Shown here: piece after piece, positions 1-18,481 of the stretch | How the letters are laid out: every line of letters starts with the position of its first letter | Position numbering within the stretch: the first letter of the stretch is position 1 | Source: Candidatus Poribacteria bacterium | GTDB taxonomy: Bacteria; Poribacteria; WGA-4E; WGA-3G | Length of the DNA: 64,000 nucleotides | Assembly: GCA_965205025.1 (NCBI GenBank) | Contig: CBDBFU010000015.1 | Coordinates: forward strand, 64,001-128,000 | Direction of reading: 5' to 3' | Translations under genes and position numbers: made by a program | Notes under the pieces: generated by a model | Seen by the model: only the letters and a program-made list of their open reading frames with translations | What the model was told of the DNA's origin: nothing | Databases searched by the model: none

Positions 1-2
1 GG

Positions 3-986
3 TTCGGTATAAGACATTATAGGAACATACCGCAGACACTGACTGAACCTGCTACTTGGCAGGTGTATTTTAGCGATGTGGTTAATGGTAATAGTGCAAA
101 TTCATTAGAAAATAGACTTTTGGAAAAGCTTGGAATTGCATCTAAACGTATTGATGCCGCGTTGTATGATCTTGACTCTCAACCTATAGCAGATGCATTG
201 ATCATGGCACATCAACGTAATGTAAAAGTGCGAATCTTTGCAGAAAACAACAATGTTGATGAGGAGGAATTTAAACGGCTTAAAGAATCAGGAATTCCTG
301 TCTTAGATGATGGTGATAATGATGGATTGATGCATCATAAATTTTTTGTAATTGATGGACGTTATGTTTGGACAGGTTCGTACAATCCTACTTATAGGGG
401 AGGAAATAAGAATAACAATAACGTTGTTTGGATAGATTCACCGGCACTGGCTACAAATTTCACGCAAGAGTTTCGTGAATTGTTTGTATTAGCAGAATAT
501 GACCGTTCTGCAGATCCGAATGTTCCCTTTCCTCGAATTACTCTTAGCGACGGGACACAAATTACCACTTACTTTGCCCCTGAAAATGATACTATTTCTC
601 CACTATTGAAAGAAATTAAAGCGGCAGAAGAATCTATTCATTTCATGGCATTTTCATTCACTCATGACCAATTGGGTGATGCGATGCGAAAACAGTTCAG
701 ATCTGGGATTTCAGTGAATGGAGTTTTTAGTGCTAAACAACATAAGACTGATGGAAGATACTCAGAATATGGTGGTATGAAAAAGGCAGGATTGTCTGTT
801 AAATTAGATAATGAACCTGGAACTATGCATCACAAGGTAATAATTATTGATGAAGAAACAGTGATTACCGGTTCATATAACTTCTCAAAAAATGCTGAGT
901 CACGAAATAGTGAAAACTTGCTAATTATCAAAGGTAACAAGGAAATTGCTCGCGCATACTTAAATGAGTTTAACCGATTAAAATAG
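3..986 (+). CDS. Phospholipase D-family protein with two HKD motifs (5'-truncated by window edge)
   Basis: Motifs HHKFFVID..WTGSYN and HHKVIIID..ITGSYN; the frame is open upstream of the GTG at 63 to the window start. Confidence 0.9.
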   Translation, partial: FGIRHYRNIPQTLTEPATWQVYFSDVVNGNSANSLENRLLEKLGIASKRIDAALYDLDSQPIADALIMAHQRNVKVRIFAENNNVDEEEFKRLKESGIPVLDDGDNDGLMHHKFFVIDGRYVWTGSYNPTYRGGNKNNNNVVWIDSPALATNFTQEFRELFVLAEYDRSADPNVPFPRITLSDGTQITTYFAPENDTISPLLKEIKAAEESIHFMAFSFTHDQLGDAMRKQFRSGISVNGVFSAKQHKTDGRYSEYGGMKKAGLSVKLDNEPGTMHHKVIIIDEETVITGSYNFSKNAESRNSENLLIIKGNKEIARAYLNEFNRLK

Positions 987-1046
987 TAAGATTAGAAAAG
1001 GTAGCAATTATTCTGGTGAGTTTTGGATAGTAAAATATACCTACTT

Positions 1047-2117
1047 TCAGTCTTGTCTTTCGCCAAGTTTAACCGTATGACTCTGAACCTGTCCATCTCT
1101 ACGGATTTTAAGAGTAATATTTGTACTTGGAGATGTAGTTCCCACTCTTCTAAGAAGTTCGAAGTAATGTCTGATTGGATCATTATTAAATTCAAGAATA
1201 ATATCTTCAGGTAAGAGTCCACTCTTATGTGCAGGACTGTCTTGAACTACTCGTGTAATGAAAACACCAAAATCACTTGTTTCGATGTCAACCCCCAGCC
1301 ATCCTCTGGAAACTTTACCATTCTTTATTATTTCATCTGCAACTGATTTGACTGTTTCAATTGGTAATGCCAAAGTTATTTCATGTGTTTTCATTAACTG
1401 AATAGGTGGTTGTAGTAACCCCATGTCAGTTTGTTCAGTAAGAATAGCCAGTATCATTCCGACCACTTCCCCGGATGTATTTATAACTGCTCCTCCACTA
1501 TTGCCAGGTGAAATTGGTGCGTTAATCTTAATTAATTCATCACAGGGGAGTTCAGGCAAGAATTCACAGCCACTTACGATTCCAAACGAAACAATTGGAT
1601 GATCTCCATGTGAACTTCCGATTGTAAAAACAAATGAGCCAATATCTAATTGTGTGGAATCCCCTTGTTTTACTATATTTGACAATTCATCATCAACTTT
1701 TAATACGAGAATATCAGTTAATTCATCTATTCCAATGACTTTGGCGGTTGTCTTTTGATCATTATGAAAAACCACCTCAATCTTGTTTGGTGAAAAACTG
1801 AATGTTGTTGTAGCAATGTATCCATTCTTATTTAATAGTAAACCGGAACTAATATCCTGTTGAAGCAAAGTAATATTTCCAACATTCGATTGCAATCTGT
1901 TTCTGGAATTACGAGTTGCTAATACTTTAACAACAGCGGGCCGTGCGGTATTTATAACCTTTTTGAATTCCTTTTCAAACAGTTGTAGGATATTATCTTT
2001 CGCTTCAGTTGGTAATACAGAGATAAAAAGAAACAGAAAGATATACATGAATGTATGAAAAACATGGTTATTTCTTCGGTTAGTCTTGTAGGGATGTATG
2101 TTTTGATTATCAAACAT
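1047..2117 (-). CDS. HtrA/DegS-like trypsin-fold (S1C) protein with one PDZ domain; catalytic His apparently missing
   Basis: PGNSGG motif, TDILVLKV, C-terminal PDZ (RGWLGV..SPAHKSGL..EDII), N-terminal hydrophobic segment. Confidence 0.88.
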   Translation of the reverse strand: MFDNQNIHPYKTNRRNNHVFHTFMYIFLFLFISVLPTEAKDNILQLFEKEFKKVINTARPAVVKVLATRNSRNRLQSNVGNITLLQQDISSGLLLNKNGYIATTTFSFSPNKIEVVFHNDQKTTAKVIGIDELTDILVLKVDDELSNIVKQGDSTQLDIGSFVFTIGSSHGDHPIVSFGIVSGCEFLPELPCDELIKINAPISPGNSGGAVINTSGEVVGMILAILTEQTDMGLLQPPIQLMKTHEITLALPIETVKSVADEIIKNGKVSRGWLGVDIETSDFGVFITRVVQDSPAHKSGLLPEDIILEFNNDPIRHYFELLRRVGTTSPSTNITLKIRRDGQVQSHTVKLGERQD

Positions 2118-2152
2118 GTCTATTCCTCATCCAATAAATTCAAAGTAGTATA

Positions 2153-2746
2153 CTATAATCCGCCACCTGTCACAGGCGTGGAATAACTGACTTGCTTAAG
2201 GACATACCTTCGTTGCATTGGTTTACCAGATACAGAGTTTGAAAAAATTGAGGAACCAATTCCTGAATGATTAAGGTTGCTCCGCAGAGTTGGTGTATTT
2301 GTTGTATGTCTTGAACGTTCAACGACGACTGAGGACGACTTATCTTCTCCCATTTGAGTTGTTTGGGTTAAGGTATCCAACTGTGTATCATCATCATTTC
2401 CTACATTGAATTGATATAAGAATGTACCTGTGATGACCATGAACATAACCAATCCACTACTGAGTGCCCATTTAGGTGTACCAAATTGAGTGCGTAATCG
2501 TTGCCAGAATGAAAGTCTTGCGGGTTGTTCTTGGTTCAGTTGTTGTTGTAGTGTAGTCAAGAAAGTAGGTGAGGGTTGGTCCTGTGGTAGTTGTTGTAAC
2601 TCAGAAACAGATTCGCGGAAGAGTTCGTATTCCTTCTGACACGCATCACAATTGTCAAGATGTTCATCAAAGGCTTGTAAAGTATGGTAATCCAGCGTAT
2701 CTTCGAAATATGAAGAGAAGTTTTCCTCAATCTGTAGGCAGTTCAT
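2153..2746 (-). CDS. Zinc-binding transmembrane anti-sigma factor (zf-HC2)
   Basis: N-terminal C..HLDNCDAC (HxxxCxxC) followed by a TM helix; 4-bp overlap with the ECF sigma gene. Confidence 0.88.
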   Translation of the reverse strand: MNCLQIEENFSSYFEDTLDYHTLQAFDEHLDNCDACQKEYELFRESVSELQQLPQDQPSPTFLTTLQQQLNQEQPARLSFWQRLRTQFGTPKWALSSGLVMFMVITGTFLYQFNVGNDDDTQLDTLTQTTQMGEDKSSSVVVERSRHTTNTPTLRSNLNHSGIGSSIFSNSVSGKPMQRRYVLKQVSYSTPVTGGGL

Positions 2747-3351
2747 ATTGTCTCCATGTATGGCTTAAGTTTGTTTTTTAACATTATTCTTGCTCGATTG
2801 ATTCGAGATTTTGTAGTTCCACTTCGTAGTTCAAGTATTTTTCCGATCTCATCATAACTTAACCCCTGAACATCTCTTAGGATAAGCGGATATCTATATT
2901 GTTCTGGTAGTTCAGCAATAGCATTTTGGATGATATGGCGTAGTTCCTTTCGTTCAATCGCCACATCAGGTTGTAATGCAGTATCTGCAGGTGCAGTTGC
3001 GATGAGATCAATTTCTTCTTCATTTTCCCTATTATCGTTATTGTTTGAGGTGACATTATCAACACGAAATCTATCGCGTCGGGCTCTATTCCTTATATCA
3101 TTTTTACATAGATTCTTTGCAATAAAATACATCCAAGTTTTAAACTGTGCACGGCCAGGTTTGTATCGATCAGCGGCTTTATACATTCGGATAAAGGTTT
3201 CTTGTGCCAAGTCTTCAGCGTTATCTCTATCACCTGTGAACTTTGCAATGAAGTTAATTAGTGGTTGTTGATGTCGGCGTACCAAAAGTGTGAATGCATT
3301 TTCATCCCCTTTTTGGAACTGCTGCATTAGCTGATCATCTAATTCTGGCAT
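2743..3351 (-). CDS. ECF RNA polymerase sigma factor (RpoE/SigW-like)
   Basis: AEDLAQETFIR, FKTWMYFIAKN, GLSYDEIGKIL..GTTKSRINRAR; start moved to ATG 3351, which has a GGAGGG RBS. Confidence 0.93.
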   Translation of the reverse strand: MPELDDQLMQQFQKGDENAFTLLVRRHQQPLINFIAKFTGDRDNAEDLAQETFIRMYKAADRYKPGRAQFKTWMYFIAKNLCKNDIRNRARRDRFRVDNVTSNNNDNRENEEEIDLIATAPADTALQPDVAIERKELRHIIQNAIAELPEQYRYPLILRDVQGLSYDEIGKILELRSGTTKSRINRARIMLKNKLKPYMETI

Positions 3352-3376
3352 CTGACCCTCCAAAGGTACATCCTTA

Positions 3377-3403
3377 TATACACCGAAATTTGTATTGGGT
3401 TCC
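3377..3403 (-). promoter_or_regulatory. Putative autoregulatory ECF-type promoter (GGAACC-N16-GTATA)
   Basis: Resembles the general ECF -35 GGAAC / -10 GT layout and lies just upstream of the sigma RBS. Confidence 0.35.
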
Positions 3404-3705
3404 AAATTATTTCAATGCAAGAAAAGTAAAATAGACATCATTGCTTAGATAGATTATTATTCATAACCTTCAGACTATGTTCATACTAATTTAGACCATT
3501 TATAGAATGTTGTAGTTAATGTTTCTCACGTATTAAGATTTGAAATAGCATTGTACTTATGATTCTATGTCCTTAAATTGTTTAGCACATGTTGACCGTG
3601 AGACTATTATTGTGTATTATATTTCATATTTTGTAAAATAAAAAGACAACTAAAAAGTCTGTAACTTGGAAAAAAGGATTTAGATAGCATTTAGATTGTC
3701 GTGAA

Positions 3706-3735
3706 ATTTTATCATTTCAAGCAAGCAATTGTCAA
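3706..3735 (-). promoter_or_regulatory. Sigma70-type promoter TTGACA-N18-TAAAAT facing the ECF operon
   Basis: Direct motif match with an extended -10 TG. Confidence 0.45.
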
Positions 3736-3772
3736 ATTTAGCTCAATTTATAATAGACTTACTTGATATGTT

Positions 3773-3989
3773 ATTCTATTTCTATAAATTATCGTCTCAT
3801 TAGGCGGTTATTATGGTAGTCATTTTTCAGGTCACAAACTGAATGAAGATTAATTTTTTAAATCGGTAATATACGGATGGGTTAACCCCGCCCCTACGAT
3901 AAGTTTATGGACTGGATTACCGAAATACTTACTTAATCCTCATAAAGTTTGTGGTACAAAAAAGAGACATTTTCAATTAGAAATGGTAT
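3773..3989. mobile_element. Family A MITE-like element (ATACCATTTCTA TIRs) with a nested family C element
   Basis: Homologous to 26387-26500 and to the reverse complement of 61544-61657; interrupted in its central hairpin loop. Confidence 0.85.
3843..3943. mobile_element. Family C 101-bp element (ATGAAGATTAA-N9-TCGGTAAT bipartite TIRs) carrying a GTAGGGGCGGGG REP hairpin
   Basis: Near-identical reverse complement at 61789-61889; absent from the uninterrupted A copies. Confidence 0.85.
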
Positions 3990-4024
3990 TAGATATTCCG
4001 GTGATTATTTTATGGAGGATGTGC

Positions 4025-4594
4025 ATGTTTGATCAAGTGTTACAAGAAGTGGAAGCACAGTGTAGAAAAGAGAGAATTCCGATGTTGGGACCAGAAAAAG
4101 CGGAATTTGTTGCAAATTGTATTGAGAAGGCGAAACCGTCTTTAATAGTTGAATGTGGTACTGCTGTAGGATACTCCGGTTTGTGGATTTTGCGTGTATT
4201 AAGTGAAGTCGGTTCAGGTCGGTTAATTACAATAGAGATTGATTCCAAACGCGCTGAACAAGCAAGGTCAAATTTTGAACAGGCAGGTGTTGCAGATCTG
4301 GTAGATTCTCGTATTGGTGATGCAGAAGAGGTATTAAAAAGTATAGATGATGAAGTAGATTTTCTCATACTTGACAACAACTTCGACAATTACTTCCCTT
4401 GTTATAAAGCGATTGAACCGAAATTGACTAATCCAGCTACTGTATTGGCAGATAATGTTGGTATAGGGGCAGATGCTATGACTGATTATCTTGAGCATGT
4501 TCGTACCGAATATGAAAGTGAAACATATTGGTTTGATATTGATCTTCCTTGGGTAAAACAGGATGCAATTGAAGTCAGTGTCTATCGTCGGTAA
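4025..4594 (+). CDS. Class I SAM-dependent O-methyltransferase (caffeoyl-CoA OMT/YrrM-like)
   Basis: IVECGTAVGYSG, ITIEID, GDA, VLADNV; start set at ATG 4025 after GGAGG. Confidence 0.88.
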   Translation: MFDQVLQEVEAQCRKERIPMLGPEKAEFVANCIEKAKPSLIVECGTAVGYSGLWILRVLSEVGSGRLITIEIDSKRAEQARSNFEQAGVADLVDSRIGDAEEVLKSIDDEVDFLILDNNFDNYFPCYKAIEPKLTNPATVLADNVGIGADAMTDYLEHVRTEYESETYWFDIDLPWVKQDAIEVSVYRR

Positions 4595-4617
4595 TGGAAA
4601 TACTTTAAGGAGGTAGA

Positions 4618-7287
4618 ATGCAATATAACTTTACAAGTGTTGCTCGGTTACCTGCCCCAGATGACAACGTAGCCATTGTTACACAAAGATTAGAATCTGG
4701 ATCTCAAATTCAATACAATGGAACACAATTTTCTCTTTCTCATACAATATTAGAGGGACATAGATTTGCTATTCGCTCTATCTCAGCAAATGATCCTCTG
4801 TTGTCCTGGGGATTGCCTTTTGGTTATGCTTCAGGAACAATCAAACCTGGAGATTATGTTTGCAATCAAAAGATGATAGATTCTCTATCAATACGGAATT
4901 TAGATATTGACTTGCCAACTCATCCGAATTTTCTTGATGAAATTATACCTTATAGCTTAGATGAAACTTCTTTCATTCCTGGGAGACAGGTTGATCAACA
5001 CACAGATCCCCGCAATTTTCTTGGATATAGTCGTCCTGGAAATAGAGGTGTTGGTACACGAAATTATATTGCCATTATGGGAACTACAGCTCGTACTTCT
5101 GGATTTGTAAGAAGGTTGGCTGACAGTTGTAAAGGTCTTAGTGATGATTTTTCAAATATAGATGGAATCGTGGCTGTTACCCATACAGAAGGTGGTGAGG
5201 ATAAAACACCGAATAACATTGAATTACTACTTCGTACACTTGCGGGGTTTACAATACATCCCAATATAGGTGCAATACTTCTTGTCGACTATGGAACTGA
5301 ATCAGTAACCAATGAGATGTTAAAGGAATATATGCTGGGTGAAAGGTATGAACTTGAGAATATCCCACATGAATTCTTAAGAATTGATGGTGGTTTTGAT
5401 GATAATATTACACGCGGTATTGATACCATAAATGGATGGTTGGATAGAGTGGACAGCGTTCCTCGTACAGAACAATCATTGAAGAATTTAAAGATTGCGT
5501 TGCAGTGTGGTGGTTCAGATGCATTTTCAGGTGTGTCTGGAAATCCATTGGCAGCTAATGTTGCTAAAGAGGTAATCCGATATGGTGGATGTGCGAATCT
5601 GGCTGAAACTGATGAGTTAATTGGTGCTGAAGCGTATTTACTTCAGAATGTTCGTGATGTTGCAACTGCTCGTAAGTTCCTTAATACGGTTGAGGAATTC
5701 AAGGAACGGGTTGGTTGGCATGGACATTCTGCAGAAGGGAATCCATCAGGTGGGAATAATTTCCGTGGACTTTATAATATTGCTATTAAATCCATTGGTG
5801 CAGCTATGAAACGAAATCCTGATGTTTGCCTTGACTACGTCATTGGTTATAGCGAATTGATGAGGGATACAGGTTACTACTTTATGGATAGCCCAGGTAA
5901 CGATTTAGAAAGTATCGCAGGTCAGGTAGCATCTGGTTCTAATATGATATTCTTTGTTACAGGTAATGGATCTATTACGAATTTCCCATTTGTTCCCACA
6001 ATAAAAATAGTTACCACCACAAACAGATTTGAGATGTTAGAAAAAGATATGGATGTTAATGCGGGTGCGTATCTTGATGGAACACCTATGGAACAACTCG
6101 GCGAAGAGATGTTAGATTTGACAGTGGATGTTGCTTCAGGTGATCTCTCTGTAGGTGAAAAAGCAGGGCACTCACAAGTCTCGTTATGGCGTGATTGGAA
6201 ACAGACGGGACCAACTGACTTAGCTTCTTTGCTTGAGTCATCTGAGATAAAAAATGGTGCCCCGATTCCAATTGATTCTATTGATGAAAAGCAGCCAATT
6301 TCATCTGAATATACTTTTCGTGCTTATCAAACTGATTATGGATTGAGAAGTGATCAACTTGCGTTGATTTTACCTACAAGTTTGTGTTCTGGACAGATAG
6401 CACAGATGATTGTGCGAAAATGTAATGAACAAAGAATTGGAAAAGAACAGGGAATCTCAAGGTTTGTCACACTTCCACATACTGAAGGTTGTGGTGTCTC
6501 CAGTGGACGATCAGAAGAGATTTACACAAGAACTATGATTGGTCATTTGACTCATCCATCTGTATCAATTGGTTTGCTCCTTGAACACGGTTGTGAAAAG
6601 ACGCATAATGACCATGTTCGGCATGAGATTGAGAATTTGGGTATTTCCCCTGATGACTACGGATGGGCGAGTGTGCAGATGGATGGTGGAATTGATTCTG
6701 TGATTGATAAAGTGCAGAATTGGTTTGAGGAAGCGTTATCGGATAAACCATCCATTCCTGTTGTGGATGCTGGTTTAGACCACCTGTGTATTTCCATCAT
6801 GTCAACAGGACAGGTAACCGAGCATGTATCTGAAAATCTGATGGAATTGGTTTACGAAATAACAACTGCAGGTGGAACAGTTGTTGTCCCTGCTAATTCA
6901 ACATTTTTGTTAGAATCATTATCTCTTTCTCCTTCACTTGCGTATGGACAACGTGTTGAAAAGAAGGGTCTGCACATAATGGAAGCACCTACCGACCAAC
7001 CGACTGAGATTCTTACAGGATTAGCTGCAACAGGAGTTGAACTTGGATTTGTCCATATTGTGGGTGCTCCCCTTCAATCCCATGCAATGGTTCCACTTAT
7101 TCAAGTATCTACAGATTCTGTGACACAAGAAAACTATGGATCAGATTTAGACTTAGTATGTGTTGATGTAGATGCGATGTTAGGTTTGATAGTCGAAGTT
7201 GCGTCTCGTGAATATGTACCAAAGTTGCATGGAAAGGGAAATATAGATTTTCAGTTGACGCGTGGGTTGTTGGGTGTTTCGATGTGA
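4618..7287 (+). CDS. UxaA/GarD-family (altronate/galactarate) dehydratase with SAF domain and duplicated core
   Basis: DDNVAI SAF domain, GYSRPGNRGVGTRNY, LQCGGSDAFSG, GNPSGGN; second repeat with HTEGCG and HGCEK. Confidence 0.88.
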   Translation: MQYNFTSVARLPAPDDNVAIVTQRLESGSQIQYNGTQFSLSHTILEGHRFAIRSISANDPLLSWGLPFGYASGTIKPGDYVCNQKMIDSLSIRNLDIDLPTHPNFLDEIIPYSLDETSFIPGRQVDQHTDPRNFLGYSRPGNRGVGTRNYIAIMGTTARTSGFVRRLADSCKGLSDDFSNIDGIVAVTHTEGGEDKTPNNIELLLRTLAGFTIHPNIGAILLVDYGTESVTNEMLKEYMLGERYELENIPHEFLRIDGGFDDNITRGIDTINGWLDRVDSVPRTEQSLKNLKIALQCGGSDAFSGVSGNPLAANVAKEVIRYGGCANLAETDELIGAEAYLLQNVRDVATARKFLNTVEEFKERVGWHGHSAEGNPSGGNNFRGLYNIAIKSIGAAMKRNPDVCLDYVIGYSELMRDTGYYFMDSPGNDLESIAGQVASGSNMIFFVTGNGSITNFPFVPTIKIVTTTNRFEMLEKDMDVNAGAYLDGTPMEQLGEEMLDLTVDVASGDLSVGEKAGHSQVSLWRDWKQTGPTDLASLLESSEIKNGAPIPIDSIDEKQPISSEYTFRAYQTDYGLRSDQLALILPTSLCSGQIAQMIVRKCNEQRIGKEQGISRFVTLPHTEGCGVSSGRSEEIYTRTMIGHLTHPSVSIGLLLEHGCEKTHNDHVRHEIENLGISPDDYGWASVQMDGGIDSVIDKVQNWFEEALSDKPSIPVVDAGLDHLCISIMSTGQVTEHVSENLMELVYEITTAGGTVVVPANSTFLLESLSLSPSLAYGQRVEKKGLHIMEAPTDQPTEILTGLAATGVELGFVHIVGAPLQSHAMVPLIQVSTDSVTQENYGSDLDLVCVDVDAMLGLIVEVASREYVPKLHGKGNIDFQLTRGLLGVSM

Positions 7288-7359
7288 ATTCGTAAATACC
7301 AGTAGATATTTTGAGTCTCTATAGGATAAGATTTAGACTGAACATCAGGTGTCTAATAT

Positions 7360-8818
7360 CAATACCTTCGCCAATTATCCTGTGCTTAGTTCTAACTGTG
7401 TGTGATGAATAGCACCGATAGAACTAAGGTGCTGTGTGATTTGCTCAATAACAATAGGTTCAGGTTTTTGCGGAAGTATTTTTAATGTTTCCTCTAAATA
7501 CTTCATAGCTCGGTATTTTGCTTTCAAATCTAATACGCTACACGCCGTGTTATTAGACCGAAATGTGTTTGCCATTTTCGCACTCACATTTACCATAAAC
7601 AAGGATAAGTTTGCTGCATTGTTCACAGGTGTTTTTTTGACATTCATAAAATCTTCCAACCCCCAATACTGTTTTGCGTCTCTGAAGTTAAACTCTATTT
7701 GAAAACGAAGGGAGTAATAATCAATCATCTTTAGAGCACTCAGTTTTAGGTCAGAACTAAACAATAACACGTGTGATTTTTGTCCTGTCAGCAGATGCGT
7801 CTTGAGAAGACAAACAATATTGAGAGGATCCGCAAACTGCTTATGACGCAAGTGTACTTGATACACTTCGGTTCTGATGTTATCGGTTGTTTCAACAGAG
7901 ACACGCCATTTGTTATCCATTTGTTGTGGATTGAAACGATCCCCATAGAGGGCGCGGCGTCCACGACCTTTATACGGTGTCGTTGGTGGATAATAGAGCG
8001 CAGCATCTGTGCGAAGTTTTGAAATGAGATGGAGACCACATTGTGATACCATTTGTAGCGCATTATTGTGTCCGAAATATCCATCAAGCACAAAATAACG
8101 GAGTTTGATACAATCTCCCATCTGTTTGAGAAATGATTTCACCATAGTTTGAAGTTGTTTCAAAGTATTGCTGAACACAACATCCTTTTTGTTTCGATTC
8201 AGGCTCCCTTTGGGGCGACCACGCCCTCGTTTTGTTATGGCTTTCTGTGTATTCTCCTGATCTTCGATTGCAGACACATCCATATTGGCTGATGCGTTGC
8301 TACGCACGATTTGTTCCATCATCATTGGGTAAGAACACCTGTCTTTGACGCTTACTAAGGACACCGCTAAAAATGACAAACCGGAAATCGGTTTTCCATG
8401 TAATGAGGAGAAGAAGCGATCTATACCATAAGTTTTTTTCCCAGTTTTTGACACCGTGACTTCATCTGCTACAAGGATATACAAACTTTTAGGATCAAAC
8501 AGATATTTTTTGAAAAAGAGCCAACACATCTTTGGCCAAGGGAGATCTGTGCTAAAGAAGCGTTGTATCGTACGATAACTCCCTCCTTTTGATGTCCAAC
8601 GGGAGATATTTAACATTGTGACCTGACCTGTCATCGCAAGCAGGGCAAATACAACTTGACATAACTGGCGGATCATAGTAGTGGATAAACATAGATTAAA
8701 TACAGTAAATAATGCTATAATTTCTGGCATGGGTGTGTGTCCTTTCTAAGTTAAAATGATATTTTAAAACTTTAGGACAAACACCCTTTTTATTCAAGTG
8801 TTTTTGGCGAAGGTATTG
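7360..8818 (-). mobile_element. Complete insertion sequence (IS4/IS701-like DDE), 1459 bp
   Basis: Perfect 15-bp TIRs CAATACCTTCGCCAA (7360-7374) / TTGGCGAAGGTATTG (8804-8818); 6-bp TSD TAATAT at 7354-7359 and 8819-8824. Confidence 0.93.
7375..8730 (-). CDS. DDE transposase (IS4 superfamily)
   Basis: VADEVT, VLDGYF and YSLRFQIEFNFRDAK (Y-2-R-3-E-6-K) motifs; lies between the TIRs. Confidence 0.92.
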   Translation of the reverse strand: MPEIIALFTVFNLCLSTTMIRQLCQVVFALLAMTGQVTMLNISRWTSKGGSYRTIQRFFSTDLPWPKMCWLFFKKYLFDPKSLYILVADEVTVSKTGKKTYGIDRFFSSLHGKPISGLSFLAVSLVSVKDRCSYPMMMEQIVRSNASANMDVSAIEDQENTQKAITKRGRGRPKGSLNRNKKDVVFSNTLKQLQTMVKSFLKQMGDCIKLRYFVLDGYFGHNNALQMVSQCGLHLISKLRTDAALYYPPTTPYKGRGRRALYGDRFNPQQMDNKWRVSVETTDNIRTEVYQVHLRHKQFADPLNIVCLLKTHLLTGQKSHVLLFSSDLKLSALKMIDYYSLRFQIEFNFRDAKQYWGLEDFMNVKKTPVNNAANLSLFMVNVSAKMANTFRSNNTACSVLDLKAKYRAMKYLEETLKILPQKPEPIVIEQITQHLSSIGAIHHTQLELSTG

Positions 8819-8823
8819 TAATA

Positions 8824-8969
8824 TAACGTGAGTTTGATAAGACACATTGTACCCCGAACTTTTAGTTAACACCAGAGTGCACAAACTGGAAAGTTTGTGC
8901 TACAAAGACTATCTTCAGGACAAAATTCTGTTTATCGAACTGATATTTTTCATTATCAAACTGGCGTTA
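8824..8969. mobile_element. Family E 146-bp MITE-like element (TAACGTGAGTTTGATAA TIRs) with a central GTAGCACAAACT REP hairpin
   Basis: Near-identical reverse complement at 54941-55086. Confidence 0.85.
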
Positions 8970-9002
8970 ATATATATTGATAGTGTAATCTTGGTAGTTG
9001 TA

Positions 9003-9027
9003 TCGGTTCGGGTGGAAACCGAACCTA
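9003..9027 (-). repeat. Solo REP-like hairpin (ATAGGTTCGG-TTTCCAC-CCGAACCG)
   Basis: Same family as the GTAGGTTCGGTTTCCTAACC hairpin at 18113-18132. Confidence 0.55.
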
Positions 9028-9031
9028 TCTA

Positions 9032-9580
9032 TTAAGAGACAATGTTTTTAAATAGAAATTCTTCTGCTACGACAAATCGATCATCGGTTTCGGGTGATCT
9101 GTAGATTAGATATATCGAATCAACTTTAAACTGTATCGGTTTCCAATTTGTTTGCAATCGTTGTTGTTCTTGTGTAAGTGTTTTGTGTTGGAATTGTCCG
9201 ACTGATAGGTGGGGTGTAAAACCATTTGGAAATCTGGCAGTATCGTCGTAATCAGGTAGTTTGTTGATGAGTGTTTTGTGTAAATTCTTGATATTGTCGT
9301 CTGGTTCTGGTGTGAGAAACATTGTGGACGATTTTCTATGTTTGAATGCGTTGAATGTAGATAATGTAACCGTGAATGGAGTATTTTGTTCGGCAGTCTG
9401 TTCTAATGCGGGTATTAATTCTGGAAATTCAGTTTGTGGTGCAAATGGATAGAGCATTGTAATGTGTGGCATCCATCTGATGTAGTTTCTATCATATAAT
9501 TTTCGTATTTCTTGGATGGGTTGTTGTATTGACTCTGGTGGGATTAGAACAACTGCAGTGGTGTGTGTTTTGGTAGGCAT
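9032..9580 (-). CDS. 2H phosphoesterase / 2'-5' RNA ligase family protein
   Basis: Two HxT/S motifs: PHITM and PHLSV. Confidence 0.88.
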   Translation of the reverse strand: MPTKTHTTAVVLIPPESIQQPIQEIRKLYDRNYIRWMPHITMLYPFAPQTEFPELIPALEQTAEQNTPFTVTLSTFNAFKHRKSSTMFLTPEPDDNIKNLHKTLINKLPDYDDTARFPNGFTPHLSVGQFQHKTLTQEQQRLQTNWKPIQFKVDSIYLIYRSPETDDRFVVAEEFLFKNIVS

Positions 9581-9624
9581 TGGTTAGTAGTAATATCAGT
9601 TAATAATCTTGGAAATGTGGATTA

Positions 9625-10398
9625 TTATGTTTTTGCACATGCCCCACCATCAACGAGGAGTGATGTTCCTGTGATCCATTCTGAATCATCTGATGCGAAG
9701 AAAACAGCTGCGCGTCCTATGTCTTTTGTTAAACCTAACCGTCCCATTGGTGTTTTCTCTAAGGAGGATTGGATTTCTTCTGGTGTGAGATAATCTTGAA
9801 TTGCTGTTTCAATATATCCGGGACAAATTGCATTGACTGTAACACCATGTTTACCCACCTCTAATGCTGTATCTCTCGTCATATTTACGACAGCGGCTTT
9901 TGCGGATGCATAGGCTGGACCTGCCCCACCACCGAAGGCGTGTATTGATGCAATTTGTATAATCCTTCCATGATCCGAATTAACTATATGTGGGATGGCA
10001 AGTTTGGTTGTCATGAATACACCGCGTAAATTTACACCGACAACTTTATCCCAATCTTCTATTGAAATCTCTTGAGATTCACCGGGTATATGTATTCCTG
10101 CGTTGTTGACGAGTATATCTAATCCACCAAAATGTTCTACAGTCTGATTAATCAAGTTTGTTATATCTGCTTCCTTGGAAACATCAGTTTGGATGAATAT
10201 GGATTCTGCACCTAAATTCTGTATTTCTTGTGTGGTGGGTGTTGTGACATCTTTTTCGTGGTATTTGCCTTGAAGTGGTTTTTCTCGTATGTCGGCAATT
10301 ACGATTTTTGCGCCTTCCCGAGCGAATTCCAATGCTATTCCACGTCCTATTCCTGAACTGCTGCCTGTGATTATGCTGATACGGTTTTTAAGAAGCAT
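9625..10398 (-). CDS. Short-chain dehydrogenase/reductase (FabG-like)
   Basis: TGSSSGIG, NNAG, YASAK, CPGYIET. Confidence 0.93.
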   Translation of the reverse strand: MLLKNRISIITGSSSGIGRGIALEFAREGAKIVIADIREKPLQGKYHEKDVTTPTTQEIQNLGAESIFIQTDVSKEADITNLINQTVEHFGGLDILVNNAGIHIPGESQEISIEDWDKVVGVNLRGVFMTTKLAIPHIVNSDHGRIIQIASIHAFGGGAGPAYASAKAAVVNMTRDTALEVGKHGVTVNAICPGYIETAIQDYLTPEEIQSSLEKTPMGRLGLTKDIGRAAVFFASDDSEWITGTSLLVDGGACAKT

Positions 10399-10435
10399 TA
10401 TAATTTTTCCATAAGTGAATTAAGGAAAGTAGAAT

Positions 10436-13400
10436 TTAAGCGTTTAAGTTCGCAACATTTTCAATCTCAGTATATATACTTCTACCTTCCCCGTAATATG
10501 ATTCGTAGATGTGTTGATAGATTTCTTCATATTTCTCATGAAATATCATCGGCTTGTATACATCAGGAAGTCCGCTCTCTAAGATTTCAGCAATTTTAAG
10601 CTCTACTTGAGCGCGGGATTGTTGGTGTTTCCGCCAATCTAAAACCAAACTATTATATTTTAATTCTTCAATTAGTTTTTTGACAGTTGACTTTACTTCC
10701 TGTCTTTGAGGTAGTGTCATTTGAATATCGGGTTTAGTTAGTATGTCGTATATAGCGAGTTCTTCTTCTGATAGTTCTTCAGAATCTGCGCGTTTATCCT
10801 CTTGGCTGAGTTTAACTAAAAAATCGTATATTTTCTGTAATTGCTGATCATCAGTAATGGCTCCTGAATTATATTCTTCAATCATCTTTTCGTATTTATC
10901 TTGTAGGTCAATTCTACTCTTATTGAGTTGAATCATTTCTTTTAATTTCTGCTTTATGATCCCTTTTAATCGTTCTGCTTGTGTCCGTTTATGTTGAGTT
11001 TCAAATCGTTCGAGAAGTTCATCGATATCTATTTGACTCAAATCAATTAGTTGGTCATTATATGAAACTGATTCAGTATCTATAATATACCCATCAGGAG
11101 CAATAGAACGGTCAAGTAAATCTTCTACCTCATCTTCGATAGAAGAGATATCGACTGGACCCCCAAGACTTTTTATTCTTTTAGCTATAATATTGATGAG
11201 CGAACAGATCCCGCTAAATTCGTTTGCTTCGGTGTCGGGTAAGATTGCCTTAAAGAGTTTATTGATATGACGTGCCTGTTGCAGGTAATCACGTTTTGTC
11301 TCATCATTAATTAAGATTTTATTTACTGCGTCATCAATAAGTTGTATCTTCGACATTTGATCTGCATTCTGTATGATTGTAAGGTCAATGTTAATTAAAC
11401 TGCAGAACTGTGTGATTTCATCAACAGCATCTCTTAGTAGATTGATAAGTTCTGACTTATCTTCAATAGGATTTGCTCCATCCCCATTCGGTCCGGTGGC
11501 ATAAATTGCGAGTGCTTTTTCAAGATACCTGAATATACCTATATAATCAACAATGAGTCCGTGAATTTTTTCTTTATATACTCGATTTGCTCTTGCGATA
11601 GTTTGCATGAGGGTATGATTTCGCTGAGGTTTATCAAGATAGATTGTTGAACATGATGGTACATCGAAACCTGTAATCCACATTGCACAGACAAACACAA
11701 TTCGGAATGGATCATCAGGGTCTTTGAATTTTGTTTCCAAATCTTCAGCGTTCATTCTTCTACGATGTGGTAGGATGTCTGCATCTCTCTTTCTTAAATC
11801 ATCAATTTCATTTTGAGATGGTGATACAACTACTGCCATATCTGTATCATCCATATATTGAATAAGAGCTTCAAGCTGTTTTCTTTCGTCTTGTGAAGGA
11901 TTATTGTTTAGGTCTGATTTTAGAGACTGAATTTTCTGTTTCCAGTATTTTTGTACTTTGTCATACATTCTGACAGCAGTGGCTTTGTCTATTGATATAA
12001 CCATTGCTTTTCCACGATAACCCCTGCCGATGAAATGTGAGACAATATCCTCTGCGACCGTCTCTAATCTCTCATCTCTGGTAATGAGATGATATTCTCT
12101 TGCAAATTCCCGTTCGAGTTTTGCTTCCTGATTTTCATCCAGTTCGGCATCCTCAAGTATCTGTTCCAGATCAGAATTTAGATCTTGGTTTGTGAGTTGT
12201 AGTCTGGGAACACGGTTTTCATAATAGAGTGGTACGGTTGCTCCGTCAGCAACAGATTGCTTAAAATCGTATACTGATACATAATCACCAAATACTTCAC
12301 GTGTTCTTTCTTCACCTGCGATAAGGGGTGTTCCAGTGAAAGCGATGAATGCTGCGTTTGGAAGTGCAGTACGCATATTCATTGCTAATGTGTCGTATTG
12401 ACTTCTGTGTGCTTCATCAGTAATTACGATGATATCTGAACGATCAGATAAGATAGGATGAGGTGTGTTATCTTGTGTTTGAAACTTGTGTATAAGTGTG
12501 AAAACATAACGATGATCTTCACTTAGGAGTTGGCGTAAGTGTTGTATGTCTTCTGCGTGGACTTCTTGCTGTGTTAAGACCCCGCTTGTACTTGCAAATG
12601 TCTTATATATTTGCTTATCTAATTCTTGTCTATCTGTTACGACGACAAATGTCCATCTACCTGATTTCTTTCTAAGGACTTTCTGTGCGAAGAAAAGCAT
12701 TGATATGCTTTTTCCGCTTCCTTGTGTATGCCAAAATACACCGAGTTTCCCATGATTTGATTCGATATGATTTAGAGCATTGATTGCATTATTTACACCT
12801 AAGTATTGGTGGTTTTTCGATATTAGTTTTATAGTTCCACCTTGTACTTCCATAAACAGTGTAAAATTCTCTATAATATCTAATAGTCGTTTTGGTTCAC
12901 AAATTGCATTGAGTATGTTCTCTATTGCTACCTGTTGGTTTTCGTTTTCTTTTTCATCTTCAATACGTTTCCATTCCGCGAAATGCTCCCAGTTGGCAGT
13001 GAATGTACCAATTCGTGCTTCTGAACCGTTTGATAGGATGATAAATGCGTTATACCAGAAGAGATGGGGGATTGTGTCTTTGTAATCTCTGAGATTGTCA
13101 TTATATGCGTCATATAGATTTTCATCAATTCGTTTGAATTCCATTAGAATCAAAGGTACCCCGTTGACGAAACAGATTAGGTCAGGTCTTCTGGTATACA
13201 TTTCACCAGTAATTGAGAATTGAGATGCTGTATAGTAATCATTATTTTCAGGATTCTCCCAATCAATGACTTGTAGAATTATATCTGCTTCTTCTTGGGT
13301 GATTGGATTGGTGACTTTTACTTTTACGCCATCTTTTAGCAGAAAGTATATTTCACGATTTGCCTCAACAGAGTTCATTACAGCGCGGGATTGTGTAAGA

Positions 13401-13627
13401 ATTTCAATTGCTTGGTTGATAGCTTCTCTTGGTGTGTTTGGATTAAGGCGTTGTAAAGCTTCTTTAAGTCTATCAGTTAGAACGACTTCAGACTTTGATT
13501 GTCTATTATTGATCTGATAATCTGATTGGAATTCGTTTATGCAATTTTGGGTATACCACCCTATATTCTCAAGGATTGAGATTGCGGGTTGTTCTATGAG
13601 TTGATCTTCACTATAGGGGTTTTGCAT
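10436..13627 (-). CDS. hsdR: Type I restriction endonuclease subunit R
   Basis: RPDLICFVNGVPLILMEFK nuclease motif; HTQGSGKS, DEAHRSQY, FTGTP, TGFDVP, QTIARANR. Confidence 0.96.
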   Translation of the reverse strand: MQNPYSEDQLIEQPAISILENIGWYTQNCINEFQSDYQINNRQSKSEVVLTDRLKEALQRLNPNTPREAINQAIEILTQSRAVMNSVEANREIYFLLKDGVKVKVTNPITQEEADIILQVIDWENPENNDYYTASQFSITGEMYTRRPDLICFVNGVPLILMEFKRIDENLYDAYNDNLRDYKDTIPHLFWYNAFIILSNGSEARIGTFTANWEHFAEWKRIEDEKENENQQVAIENILNAICEPKRLLDIIENFTLFMEVQGGTIKLISKNHQYLGVNNAINALNHIESNHGKLGVFWHTQGSGKSISMLFFAQKVLRKKSGRWTFVVVTDRQELDKQIYKTFASTSGVLTQQEVHAEDIQHLRQLLSEDHRYVFTLIHKFQTQDNTPHPILSDRSDIIVITDEAHRSQYDTLAMNMRTALPNAAFIAFTGTPLIAGEERTREVFGDYVSVYDFKQSVADGATVPLYYENRVPRLQLTNQDLNSDLEQILEDAELDENQEAKLEREFAREYHLITRDERLETVAEDIVSHFIGRGYRGKAMVISIDKATAVRMYDKVQKYWKQKIQSLKSDLNNNPSQDERKQLEALIQYMDDTDMAVVVSPSQNEIDDLRKRDADILPHRRRMNAEDLETKFKDPDDPFRIVFVCAMWITGFDVPSCSTIYLDKPQRNHTLMQTIARANRVYKEKIHGLIVDYIGIFRYLEKALAIYATGPNGDGANPIEDKSELINLLRDAVDEITQFCSLINIDLTIIQNADQMSKIQLIDDAVNKILINDETKRDYLQQARHINKLFKAILPDTEANEFSGICSLINIIAKRIKSLGGPVDISSIEDEVEDLLDRSIAPDGYIIDTESVSYNDQLIDLSQIDIDELLERFETQHKRTQAERLKGIIKQKLKEMIQLNKSRIDLQDKYEKMIEEYNSGAITDDQQLQKIYDFLVKLSQEDKRADSEELSEEELAIYDILTKPDIQMTLPQRQEVKSTVKKLIEELKYNSLVLDWRKHQQSRAQVELKIAEILESGLPDVYKPMIFHEKYEEIYQHIYESYYGEGRSIYTEIENVANLNA

Positions 13628-13645
13628 ACAGGTAGATTTTAAGAA

Positions 13646-13820
13646 TTATTGCTGTGAAATTCTATTTAAGAAGTTTGGTGGTTCAAGGATTTCAATTCCA
13701 AATTCAAACATTGCTTTCTTGAGTTCTGGATCGTCGAGTAGGTCATTATCAGTAGATACCAGGATCGAACAATTAGGTTGGTATCAAAGGCAACTCGTTA
13801 GGTACGTAATCGGATTTCAT
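13646..13820 (-). pseudogene. Internally deleted and frameshifted PIN-domain toxin remnant
   Basis: ATG overlaps the upstream TGA; shifted frames give RVAFDTNLIV (PIN N-terminus) and ILVSTDNDLLDD..IEILEPPNFL (PIN C-terminus) with the middle missing. Confidence 0.7.
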
Positions 13821-14353
13821 TTTTGTTCACGTCTTACCTCTTCGAGTGCCTCCTCAAAGTCATGTATGACTTCATCTTCGGGTGTATCAGCAAATGCTTT
13901 ATTGAATCGAGCAGTAATATTGTCCCATTCCTTCTTTAACTGGTTTTGATTACTTTCAACACGAGCATGTATTTTAGATACAATTTCGTCCAGGTCTTCA
14001 TTTTCTGATGTAACATTTGAATGTTCTTGCGCGAAATATATTCTGTCAGCAAAATTATTTTGACTCACTACCTTTTTTATCTCATCCAACAGTTTTTGAT
14101 TTCTTGATTTTGGTTTTGCCGTATCAGTTACAAACACGATACAATCATCTTGTTTGAGGAAGTGCTGAATTGCTTGCTTTAGACTTTGGGGTGCTGGTGT
14201 TCCCATATTATGGCATTTATGGAATGCATTTCTTCCTGTAGTTTGAATTGCTAATTGACCTCGTTGAGTTGACTCTTGTAAACCATCTTTAAGATATTTA
14301 ACTGCGTTAGCATCTTGGTCAGATTCAAGGTTCCAGACTCTTATTCTAATCAT
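13817..14353 (-). CDS. Hypothetical protein: TOPRIM/DUF4276-like N-terminus plus antitoxin-like helical C-terminus
   Basis: N-terminal strand-ESDQD and IVFVTD; coupled to the AAA ATPase upstream and the PIN remnant downstream. Confidence 0.5.
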   Translation of the reverse strand: MIRIRVWNLESDQDANAVKYLKDGLQESTQRGQLAIQTTGRNAFHKCHNMGTPAPQSLKQAIQHFLKQDDCIVFVTDTAKPKSRNQKLLDEIKKVVSQNNFADRIYFAQEHSNVTSENEDLDEIVSKIHARVESNQNQLKKEWDNITARFNKAFADTPEDEVIHDFEEALEEVRREQK

Positions 14354-15564
14354 ACAGGTTCCTCCATTAGGTCTTGAAGTAATTGGCTATCGAAGATAGC
14401 ACTACCTATACCAAAGTCTGAAATCCATCCGTCAAGTCCTTCTCTATTATCACGAATATCTTCAAGATTGATGACTTCTGTTCCGAGACCTGGGCGATTT
14501 CTCAGGAGTAATACACCGAGTGAATCTGAGATATTGTCTGGATTAAAAGCGTCAAGTAGATGTGAACTATGTGTTGTGATAATGACTTGTGTTCGTTCTG
14601 ATAACTGCTTGAGTACATCTGCAATATTTTTCAAGGCACCAGGATGTAAACTTCGTTCAGGTTCTTCAATTGCAATGAGTGGTGGTAAATCAGGCAAATT
14701 GAGTAAAACGTAATATATCACGAGACGTATAGTTCCCTCAGATGCACTTAATAATGGAACTGGTCTCATATTCTTTTCTAATATACAAAATCTGTATTTT
14801 CCATTAATCTTGCAACGATCTATACGAAGTTTTAAACTGGATTCGAGAGATTCATTGACATTCCTGAATCGCTCAGGATCACTTTCAAACCAGCTTGAAA
14901 ACAACTCCGATATTGCTGTTCCAAAATCTCTGAGATTTGGTACGAAATCTAAATCTTCAAAATAATCAAGTTTAGGAATACCGTAGTTATCAATAGATAG
15001 TTTCATAGAATTTGGATGAAAATCATAAAACTTCCAATGCTTTATAAAGTTGGTTATTACACTTGTTATAGGATTGTTGCCAAATTCTGTAGATGCTAAT
15101 ACAGGTTTGTTTGAATTTAAGACAGTAGGATTAGTCCCAGATTCATCAAAAATAATTCCATTACCATTTACAACTTTTATTACTAAAGCATTATTAATCA
15201 ACAACCTTTCTATAATAACTGGATTATCAGATTTTATATCTAATACTAACTTGTAGTGAATAAGTCTATCTTCTACACTAAACATTAGTCTAAACTCACT
15301 ATAAGGTTTCTCTGGTTTTTCATCTATCTGATAAGTAAGCCTATTTATATCACCTAACCCAAAAAACCCTATTATGGATTTTATTTTTGATGGACTTCCT
15401 TTTTGCATCCAGTTAAAAAAGCGAAGTGTTTCTAAGCAATTTGATTTACCACTTGCATTGGGACCCACAAGAACTGTTAAAGGTTTGAGTGGAAGTGTGA
15501 CATTGCGCAAACTCAAGAAGTTTTTGATTTGTACTTTTTCTAAGATTGCTTCTTGCTCAGACAT
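14350..15564 (-). CDS. ABC-type AAA ATPase (AAA_21/AbiEii-like predicted ATPase)
   Basis: IKNFLSL, GPNASGKSN, SEGTIR, IEEPERSLHP, IITTHS. Confidence 0.9.
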   Translation of the reverse strand: MSEQEAILEKVQIKNFLSLRNVTLPLKPLTVLVGPNASGKSNCLETLRFFNWMQKGSPSKIKSIIGFFGLGDINRLTYQIDEKPEKPYSEFRLMFSVEDRLIHYKLVLDIKSDNPVIIERLLINNALVIKVVNGNGIIFDESGTNPTVLNSNKPVLASTEFGNNPITSVITNFIKHWKFYDFHPNSMKLSIDNYGIPKLDYFEDLDFVPNLRDFGTAISELFSSWFESDPERFRNVNESLESSLKLRIDRCKINGKYRFCILEKNMRPVPLLSASEGTIRLVIYYVLLNLPDLPPLIAIEEPERSLHPGALKNIADVLKQLSERTQVIITTHSSHLLDAFNPDNISDSLGVLLLRNRPGLGTEVINLEDIRDNREGLDGWISDFGIGSAIFDSQLLQDLMEEPV

Positions 15565-15669
15565 GTTATATTCCTCAGTCCTATACCTTTAAAGACAATA
15601 GCGTTTTCTTTAATTGGTAATCAACAGAAAATGTATTGATTCTTGATAGCGTATGCCCTACTTGTCGTT

Positions 15670-15698
15670 ATTATACAATCTGAAGTGCGGTATGTCAA
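15670..15698 (-). promoter_or_regulatory. Consensus sigma70 promoter TTGACA-N17-TATAAT upstream of the AAA ATPase
   Basis: Perfect match on the minus strand. Confidence 0.7.
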
Positions 15699-15716
15699 TT
15701 TGTTTCAGTTTACATG

Positions 15717-16015
15717 GGGTATGTAAGTTTTTGGCATGAATATCATACAACATTTGTGAATGGATACCAATACTTATCTAAACTCTTAATACTATACACG
15801 CTTAAAATTCTTACAAATATGGATATATATAATAATGTGGGATGTAAGGATAATGTGAATGGAAAAGTGTTAATATTTATTTTTCTGAGATGACTACACT
15901 TTCACGGAAACCTTCACGGAGCAATTCTACGAACCCTTATTCTATAAGGGTTTATAATTTTAATGACCCCATTCTCCGTGAATCACGCATGTTAAAATAC
16001 ATATAACTTAAGTGT
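15717..16015. repeat. Family D ~300-bp dispersed repeat with an iteron/palindrome core
   Basis: Diverged reverse-complement homolog at 51351-51670; TTCACGGA repeats around AACCCTTAT-TCT-ATAAGGGTT. Confidence 0.75.
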
Positions 16016-16043
16016 AAACAAATAGATCTTTGGTTTTCAACTG

Positions 16044-16157
16044 ATACCATTTCTATAGATGTTTATCTCATGAATTGTTGTTAAGCATATCTTGAAATAC
16101 TGCACAAACTGGAAGTTTGTGCTACATTAAAGAGACTTTAATTATCGGAGATGGTAT
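16044..16157. mobile_element. Family B 114-bp MITE-like element (ATACCATTTC TIRs, GTAGCACAAACT REP hairpin)
   Basis: Homologous to 33973-34087 and to the reverse complement of 61730-61958. Confidence 0.8.
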
Positions 16158-16504
16158 AAGATGTATAAATAGAATATCATCTGGTGTTTTCATAGTGCAT
16201 ATTTGATATTGTTGAGTGTGAATATGCTTTTAAGGTAGTCTGGGACTGGGTTTATAGATGGTGTTATTGACTCATATATTTTCATAGTAACTATGAAAAT
16301 GTAATATACTTATTTCTTATTAAATTGTTGTAAAGTCAGTCCTACACAGGGTTTATAGGTTGTTTACGAGAGGGTTGGTGGAAGGAAGTAACTATGAAAA
16401 AATATGAAAGTTATATAACGAAATGTGAATGAATATATATTTATATGTTATATATCGTTTTTCTTTATGTTATTCCTAGTGTGTATAGAGAGTAGGTTTG
16501 GCTG

Positions 16505-17779: not shown

Positions 17780-17904
17780 ATTGTTTCCTGATAAACTATA
17801 TGTAGGATTTTTAGTATTGATTCTTACACCTACACTTATTCTATATTAACGACTTGTATCAGCTAACTAATTGTTTTTGTGTTTTTCACGGATTATATGT
17901 TTTG

Positions 17905-18200: not shown

Positions 18201-18481
18201 AATCTTTATATGATTGTTCCGGTTACACTTAAATCATAATGTAAGTGTATCAATTGAAAATGGTATTAGTAAGGTTTTTTTCGATTATTTCCTTGTATGA
18301 TGTGTTCCGAACTTAAAACCTATACAGTATAAATAATGTGTAGATAGATATTGTACATTAAGTAGGAATTCCATAAATAGAGACAGTTCCTTCATATCCA
18401 TTATTACTTTATCTCTTTGAGTTTATCATTCTGTGGCGAAAATAAAGGTTAATCGTTCTGCTACATTCAGATTTTAGCGTG

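Follow-up and report, generated by a model that had tools for sequence, protein, structure and literature searches.

How do copies of a short, non-coding DNA element come to lie exactly at the symmetry axis of one palindrome after another, and what enzyme puts them there? A preliminary description of the window, the 64,000-nucleotide stretch analysed here (G000:C15:64001-128000), had proposed that such an element, family C, inserts at the axis of DNA hairpins with a 1-bp target duplication. It attributed the insertions to an unidentified trans-acting mobiliser making a 1-nt staggered cut at palindrome axes. We examined the three copies in the window, searched the whole assembly (5.66-Mb, 33 contigs) for further copies, for a longer element with the same ends and for empty target sites, and compared the results with those from related genomes.

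Family-C copies in the window

Copy 1 (3843-3943, plus strand) and copy 3 (61789-61889, minus strand) belong to a subfamily of 101 bp whose terminal inverted repeats are bipartite and 28 bp long; they lie in opposite orientations and align over their full length. Copy 2 (18036-18179, plus strand) represents a 144-bp subfamily, in which a 31-bp hairpin repeat is nested within the sequence of a 113-bp subfamily, and its alignment with a 113-bp copy contains a single 31-column gap. The nested repeat lies at approximately 18076-18111 (plus strand), with a GAATGCT-ATTT-AGCATTC core at 18090-18107. The bipartite ends of all three copies had been reported correctly: ATGARGATTAA-N9-TCGGTAAT occurs five times without mismatch in the window but not once in 100 shuffled versions, and the sixth end, at the right of copy 2, carries the one-base variant ATGATGATTAA.

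The junction of copy 1 reads CACAAACT-GA[element]AA-AGTTTGTG. The left half of its target palindrome (3833-3842) consists of the arm CACAAACT (3833-3840) and GA, and the right half (3944-3953) of AA and the arm AGTTTGTG (3946-3953). Copy 3 occupies the same arms and reads CACAAACT-TC[element]CC-AGTTTGTG, its halves being 61779-61788 (arm and TC) and 61890-61899 (CC and arm). Copy 2 lies in a different hairpin and reads GAATGCC-AT[element]TA-GGCATTC, with the arm GAATGCC and AT at 18027-18035 and TA and the arm GGCATTC at 18180-18188.

Empty paralogues of the CACAAACT palindromes are present in the window. The site CACAAACT-GAA-AGTTTGTG, which the preliminary description had placed at 26456-26474, does exist, at 26446-26464, 10 positions earlier; its fold as single-stranded DNA (8-bp stem, 3-nt loop) has an energy of -6.5 kcal/mol. 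An inverted copy of it, announced for 61544-61657, was found near 61580-61598 with a mismatch in one arm (AGTTAGTG). The TCC site is present at 16103-16121 as its reverse complement, CACAAACT-GGA-AGTTTGTG, as had been described, and folds at -8.8 kcal/mol with a z-score of -5.1. Empty sites folded as single strands have 8-9-bp stems, 3- or 4-nt loops and energies of -6.5 to -8.8 kcal/mol.

Family C across the genome

The preliminary description had suggested a whole-genome search for these ends, with the flanks tabulated and compared with empty sites. A tolerant search returned 323 ends, which gave 131 two-ended copies and 61 unpaired ends. The paired copies fall into groups of 99-101 bp (n=15), 111-116 bp (n=57), 138-148 bp (n=33), other lengths under 1 kb (n=15), 1241-1244 bp (n=7) and longer (n=4, at least two of them with a nested IS4-family IS). 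Family C contains at least three subfamilies that have only the 28-bp ends in common. The properties of MITEs were found in 105 of the 131 paired copies, which are 99-148 bp long and non-coding, with IS-type ends and no internal sequence in common with the IS described below. The nested IS4-family IS was found in two 1590-bp copies (G000:C26:41879-43468, L002, and G000:C32:142925-144514); its 463-aa transposase matches NCBIfam NF033592 with an E value of 1.8e-62.

An IS630-family element with the same ends

The longer element with family-C ends and a transposase gene, whose existence had been suggested as a check, was found in this genome as an intact IS of 1241 bp, and the mobiliser need no longer be called unidentified. 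The IS has the same 28-bp inverted repeats as family C and a single open frame that encodes 384 aa, counted from its ATG. Its size and structure are those of the IS630 family, whose members have about 1.0-1.4 kb, terminal inverted repeats and a single transposase gene. The 384-aa transposase scores 181.6 bits against the IS630 profile NCBIfam NF033545 (cut-off 100, E 2.4e-53) and matches the Pfam families DDE_3 (E 1.4e-22), HTH_32, HTH_29 and HTH_23. Since MITEs and IS share their ends, the mobiliser would be this IS630-family transposase, and we regard family C as its MITE progeny.

The seven two-ended copies of the IS all have open frames of 384-385 aa, and an eighth copy lies at a contig edge (contig start). 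The IS looks active now, to judge from the identity of five of the seven copies over 1241 bp and from the open frames in all of them.

For the catalytic residues we take D191, D273 and E334, chosen by motif, as candidates, with a gap of 60 residues between the second D and the E. The spacing of these two residues in classic IS630/Tc1 enzymes is about 34-37. Residues 273-334 (L001), the stretch of about 60 residues between the presumed second D and E, contain a Lys/Pro-rich segment, KPKPPNWTGKPSEK. This stretch, roughly 25 residues longer than in the classic enzymes, could be the place where target choice differs.

Insertion at the axis of palindromes

Junctions are written below with a vertical bar for the element between its flanking bases. 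The same base lies on both flanks in 111 of the 131 two-ended copies. Perfect complementary arms of at least 6 bp, starting at most 4 nt from the element on each side, were found in 109 of the 131 copies, compared with 1582 of 200000 random positions (0.8%). The exact 2|2 register, in which an arm and 2 nt precede the element and 2 nt and an arm follow it, was found in 89 of the 131 copies compared with 71 of 200000 random positions (0.04%). Of the 22 copies that lack a perfect palindrome, many are either chimeric end pairs or keep this register with a single arm mismatch.

The arms differ widely in sequence. The 109 palindromic targets have 26 distinct arm-top hexamers; they include CACAAACT, GAATGCC and its GAC and GTC variants, GGTGCGGTT, AACCCTTAT and several hairpins that are single-copy in the genome, which bears out the proposal of insertion at the axis of palindromes with unrelated arms. 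The sole sequence bias noticed at target sites is a weak Y-NN|NN-R preference. Among 48 half-sites, which were pooled from 24 distinct sites of this genome and are not independent of each other, 44 have a pyrimidine as the final paired base of the 5' arm (T 28, C 16, A 4 and G 0 in all). The TA insertion with TA duplication of the IS630 family is not seen: flanks such as GA|AA, TC|CC, TT|TC and GG|GA lack a TA, and at most 1 bp is duplicated. Full IS and MITE copies show the same 2|2 flanks in the same target hairpins, and thus the same kind of duplication.

All five identical IS copies lie in palindromes, with the arms GAATGCC, GAATGAC, GAATGTC and TACTCC. Because identical IS copies occupy arms of unrelated sequence, we infer that the target is read by its shape, and neither a guide nor a sequence reader fits five identical copies in differing arms. 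Targeting thus looks structural and not sequence-based, as the preliminary description had suggested. We also considered that the palindromic flanks were created by the insertion, and ruled this out by the empty paralogues, which already have both arms. Dyad-centred insertion with 1 bp or none duplicated is well supported by these data.

One-base duplication in 3-nt loops

Copy 1 has 17 paralogous empty sites with identical outer flanks, all of which read CTGAAAG, and the central A at this copy is therefore a duplicated base. For copy 3 the genome holds 31 exact empty sites with the loop TCC. The 1-bp duplication proposed for each window copy accordingly fits copies 1 and 3, which have empty sites with 3-nt loops; it does not fit copy 2, for which an ATA-loop empty site was not found in 40 genomes of the genus.

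The CACAAACT hairpin is present 137 times in the genome with 3- or 4-nt loops, and particular loops go with particular host-repeat subfamilies. Among the empty hairpins with 3-nt loops (n=81), the loops are TCC (16), TTC (15), GGA (14), TTT (10), GAA (10), AAA (9) and others, and those with 4-nt loops (n=56) are nearly all GGAA or TTCC. Common 4-nt loops such as GAAA or TCCC would have offered another source for the extra base, a possibility raised at the outset; GAAA, TTTC, TCCC and GGGA loops number 0 of the 56 4-nt CACAAACT hairpins of the genome, and the extra base is no illusion.

The duplication was also assessed over all 111 equal-flank sites. After removal of one copy of the repeated base, an exact 17-nt empty site was found for 69 of them, compared with 14 on plain joining, and control constructs gave 4 and 5 matches. 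Exact empty sites of 9+9 nt fitted a gain of one base (+1) alone at 64 sites. When the 11-nt outer flanks were matched, 64 sites had an empty paralogue and 40 of these fitted +1 only (34 of the CAAACT type, 6 other). These comparisons make a 1-bp duplication of the central base in 3-nt loops a well-supported reading of the junctions. Alternative boundaries, namely a TA duplication with the ends ATGAAG...CTTCA, AT as the duplication, or a 3-bp duplication, fail against the empty sites.

Sites with other loop lengths

The fixed 1-nt staggered cut of the preliminary description does not hold for all sites, since even palindromes are occupied on the axis with unlike flanks (for example AT|AT, GT|AA, TG|CA and GT|AC). 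This genome has at least 8 such sites, and relatives have about 14. Those in this genome read AT|AT (with 7 ATAT empties), GT|AA, GT|AT, CT|AT, AT|AA (twice) and G|T. In relatives, MITE sites read AT|AA (five times), AT|TT, TG|TA, AT|GA and TT|AA, and full IS copies, in relatives and other genera, read TG|CA, GT|AC (twice), TT|CA and G|A. As the bases on the two sides of the element differ, nothing has been duplicated in the even palindromes.

The other group of exceptions comprises the GAATGNC hairpins, with about 29 occupied sites that include copy 2 of the window and six of the seven two-ended IS copies. Nearly all are AT|TA, on GCC, GAC and GTC arms alike. A +1 outcome would need an empty site with an ATA loop, and GAATGNC hairpins with this loop number 0 in this genome and 0 in the 40 genomes of the genus. 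The empty site implied for copy 2, GAATGCC-ATA-GGCATTC, thus occurs in 0 of 40 genomes, and the empties with the same arm have the loops ATTTA (29 in this genome) and ATTA (7). In the same orientation, the GAATGNC empties are ATTT (83), TTAT (34), ATTTA (45), TTAG (15), ATAA (11) and ATTA (7, on GCC arms only). The ATTTA empties are distributed over GCC (29), GAC (13) and GTC (about 3-4) arms, and on GAATGAC and GAATGTC the 5-nt ATTTA is the only empty loop available for AT|TA. The five identical IS copies include AT|TA sites on all three arm variants, and the GAC and GTC variants have no ATTA or ATA empties. Similar pairs were found at other sites, where the empties are ATTAA (2) for AT|AA on GAC arms, CTAAT (2) for CT|AT, and ATATA (3) for AT|TA in a CTACTTC hairpin of unrelated sequence. 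In one related genome, G035, none of the 78 listed empty hairpins has an ATTA, ATAA or 3-nt loop and most are ATTTA; its occupied sites are AT|TA (three), AT|AA (one) and TT|TT (one).

The simplest reading of the 5-nt GAATGNC loops, inferred from paralogues only, is that insertion leaves 2 nt on each side and the central base is lost (-1). For this genome, joining at a constant 2 nt from the stem, which would give -1 in 5-nt loops, appears the better of two readings. However, several relatives run counter to -1. In G001, G007 and G017, ATTTA loops are occupied as ATT|TTA (three sites), and in G031 the TTAAT loop is occupied as TTA|AAT (two sites), which is +1 in a 5-nt loop. The junctions TTT|TTA and AAA|AAT, also seen in relatives, were counted as 3-nt loops because one extra Watson-Crick pair can close them. 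Loops of 4 nt show both outcomes, on-axis insertion without duplication and off-axis insertion with +1; the latter was seen for GGAA (55 empties) as GG|GAA (three sites), TATC as TAT|TC and ATAA as ATA|AA.

Occupancy differs among the loops of the GAATGNC hairpins. Those of 4 nt (ATTT 83, TTAT 34, TTAG 15, ATAA 11) are almost never occupied, and insertions are frequent in the ATTTA/ATTA class. An odd loop length seems to be preferred to an even one, and the near-absence of hits in 4-nt loops does not follow from the register rule by itself. That 5-nt loops are excision footprints was ruled out in general by the CACAAACT family, which has no 5-nt loops and no 4-nt loops of the GAAA/TCCC type.

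All empty sites used here are paralogues within repeat families, in which loop changes before insertion are possible. Orthologous empty alleles were not recovered from the three sources examined. Contigs of four public runs on window positions 1-20000 break at the repeats, their joints coming from other copies, and in the two genomes of the genus nearest to this one, with 81-94% identity in the flanking genes, the intergenic regions are rearranged or contain other repeats. An exact-pattern scan of metagenome contigs for the predicted empties of two single-copy sites gave 0 hits for each. When two single-copy hairpins were sought genus-wide by pattern, one was found with 4-6-nt loops in seven other genomes, at loci that may or may not be orthologous, and the other was not found.

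Host hairpin repeats

Two of the hairpin types that host family C are themselves repeated. A unit of about 28-31 bp, GGTAT-GAATGNC-loop-GNCATTC-CCCGG, is present in hundreds of copies genome-wide, often in tandem (17994-18025 and 18076-18111 in the window). It is also nested in the loops of other hairpins (GGTGCGGT...ACCGCACC) and in family-C copies. Its arm pairs vary with compensation (GCC/GGC, GAC/GTC, GTC/GAC, GCT/AGC). The unit looks like a very small mobile repeat of its own.

The CACAAACT hairpin forms the middle of a repeat of about 120 bp with the conserved flanks ...TTATGGTAGTCATTTT...GGTACAAAAAAGAGACATT...AGAAATGGTAT. In the window this repeat lies at 3780-3842 with 3944-4000, and at 26400-26510, 16050-16170 and 61540-61660.

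Occurrence in relatives

The junctions of the CAAACT type were found in 38 of 40 genomes of the genus (1024 matches), and among the matches listed the distance from arm to element was exactly 2 nt in 147 of 150. The transposase has 825 relatives at E <= 1e-10 in a large protein collection, many of them on contigs of about 1241 bp and none specifically named. Close relatives, at 68-84% identity, are in 'Candidatus Poribacteria' MAG records, where 13 of 14 full IS copies have equal flanking bases and lie in palindromes. Palindrome dyads are also occupied by IS copies at 59-78% protein identity, both within this genus and in two further genera, of which one belongs to another family of the order; copies at 68-71% identity, from two genera of the order other than this one, show the same palindrome-centred behaviour.

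A more distant IS630 element (36-37% identity) is present in the same genus (L128 in G043:C4 and L129 in G006:C1). It has the ends ATGAACTTTGAC... and the site CC-TA[IS]TA-GG. This classic CTAG/TA site of the outgroup serves as an internal control of the method, and it makes the palindrome-dyad behaviour a property of one clade.

Proposed mechanism and alternatives

We consider it highly probable that family C is moved in trans by the 1241-bp element's IS630-family DDE transposase and joined at the dyad of palindromes of any sequence, with a duplication that depends on the site. The transposase would bind the two-part ends and move the element in trans, presumably by cut-and-paste as in ISY100 and Tc1/mariner, judging from family membership. 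An IS630-family transposase alone is described as binding the inverted repeats, excising the element and joining its 3' ends to the target (PMC2170065). In the present case no TA would be needed, and joining at the dyad of short palindromes would leave an arm and 2 nt on each side. The central base would be duplicated in a 3-nt loop (+1), nothing would be duplicated in an even palindrome (0), and the central base would apparently be lost in 5-nt GAATGNC loops (-1). If each end were joined, on its own strand, at a point 2 nt upstream of the 3' arm, the outcome would be +1, 0 and -1 in loops of 3, 4 and 5 nt, and the insertion would be completed by filling of the gap or by trimming of a one-base flap.

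The shape recognised may be a single-strand hairpin, a cruciform, or a centre that easily unpairs and bends. For a cruciform to be extruded from duplex DNA, the stems of 6-9 bp are short, which would favour single-strand hairpins over cruciforms. An easily unpaired, bent centre would be an extension of the handling of the TA target by Mos1, which is described as strongly bending its target DNA and flipping out the TA adenines (PMC5481204). Our full proposal is that the clade reads DNA shape, that the ends are joined 2 nt from the stem base on their own strands so that loop length sets +1, 0 or -1, and that the target is extruded or single-stranded at strand transfer. We offer it tentatively and give it somewhat less than an even chance.

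The most serious alternative is that the transposase always makes a 1-nt staggered cut at the dyad base pair, and that the misfits are mutated sites or stem from rare ATA- or ATTA-loop variants that have been exhausted. Equal flanking bases in 111 of 131 copies agree with it, as do all families with 3-nt loops, the 4-nt loops occupied as GG|GAA (three), TAT|TC and ATA|AA, and the junctions ATT|TTA, TTT|TTA, TTA|AAT and AAA|AAT of relatives, which are all +1. Mutation is harder to reconcile with unlike-flank axis sites that number at least 8 here and about 14 in relatives, and whose types recur (AT|AA seven times in six genomes, GT|AC twice). The exhausted variants are likewise hard to place, with the ATA loop in 0 of 40 genomes and five identical, hence recent, IS copies that include AT|TA sites on three arm variants, of which GAC and GTC have no ATTA or ATA empties. 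We therefore judge an invariable 1-nt stagger to be improbable.

The two remaining explanations do without palindrome targeting and seem to us much weaker still. Copies might have spread by homologous recombination or gene conversion between host hairpin repeats, the junctions being copied along; about 12 copies do read CTGA|AAAG with identical 11-nt outer flanks, and the host hairpins are members of large repeat families. Yet one junction type holds MITE subfamilies of 101, 113-116 and 144 bp as well as the full IS, the 26 distinct arm tops include hairpins that are single-copy in the genome, and the pattern recurs with other arms in other genera, which leaves such spread very unlikely. Near-random insertion followed by survival of the copies in hairpin loops of selfish or neutral repeats is the least credible of all. 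Intergenic repeat loops are plausible neutral sites, but selection would not fix a single-nucleotide register, 2|2 being found in 89 of 131 copies against 0.04% of random positions, and the five identical IS copies, all in palindromes, are too young for much purging.

Dyad targeting by the transposase would also explain the harmless build-up of hundreds of copies nested in hairpin repeats. A clade that does without TA and lands on the dyad of arbitrary palindromes would mean that target choice within this fold can switch from a dinucleotide to DNA shape. If true, the shape-reading clade would be the first known DDE cut-and-paste transposase with secondary structure as its address. The system is small, consisting of a single 384-aa protein and 28-bp ends, and the enzyme might then be used to detect hairpin or cruciform DNA in cells, or as a transposase whose address is defined by structure.

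Comparison with known systems

Several mobile elements are known to use hairpins or palindromes. IS200/IS605 elements have an HUH (Y1) transposase, carry subterminal hairpins of their own but no terminal inverted repeats, and insert beside a short sequence with no duplication. DNA hairpins take part in site choice there as they do here, but family C ends in 28-bp inverted repeats and its partner enzyme is of the DDE type. IS1397 and ISKpn1 of the IS3 family and IS621, ISPpu9 and ISPpu10 of the IS110 family insert in the loops or centres of extragenic palindromic repeats, each in one repeat sequence; their transposases are of the IS3 type (DDE, with a frameshift) and of the IS110 type (DEDD), respectively. 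Family C resembles them in the choice of palindromic safe havens and differs in its IS630-type transposase and in the occupation of unrelated arms, with 26 arm tops, by identical IS copies. IS110 elements are described as recognising their target through a bridge RNA (bioRxiv 10.64898/2026.03.19.712850).

The nesting of very small elements, such as the 31-bp GAATGNC unit, recalls the small dispersed repeats of cyanobacteria, which Elhai et al. in 2008 reportedly found nested in one another and in hairpins. To our knowledge, that work proposed neither an IS630 partner nor a palindrome-centre rule.

The closest parallel is the IS630/Tc1-mariner superfamily itself, represented by ISY100 of Synechocystis and by the eukaryotic Mos1. 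Its hallmark is a TA target, often CTAG or NTAN, with a 2-bp TA duplication, and the classic targets (CTAG, TA) are also palindromic. In the literature searched, with most subscription journals and ISfinder/TnPedia outside its scope, we found no IS630 member with a 0- or 1-bp duplication or with palindrome-centre targeting. The MITE/IS pair described here is ordinary in kind: the profile family is the same, the IS has about 1.2 kb and one open frame, the terminal repeats are of the two-part-binding type, and there are MITE offspring. The target rule is unusual and probably undescribed, for unlike those of the classic elements, the loops used here (GAA, TCC, TTC, GGA and others) lack a TA, either 1 bp or nothing is duplicated, and the arms may have any sequence.
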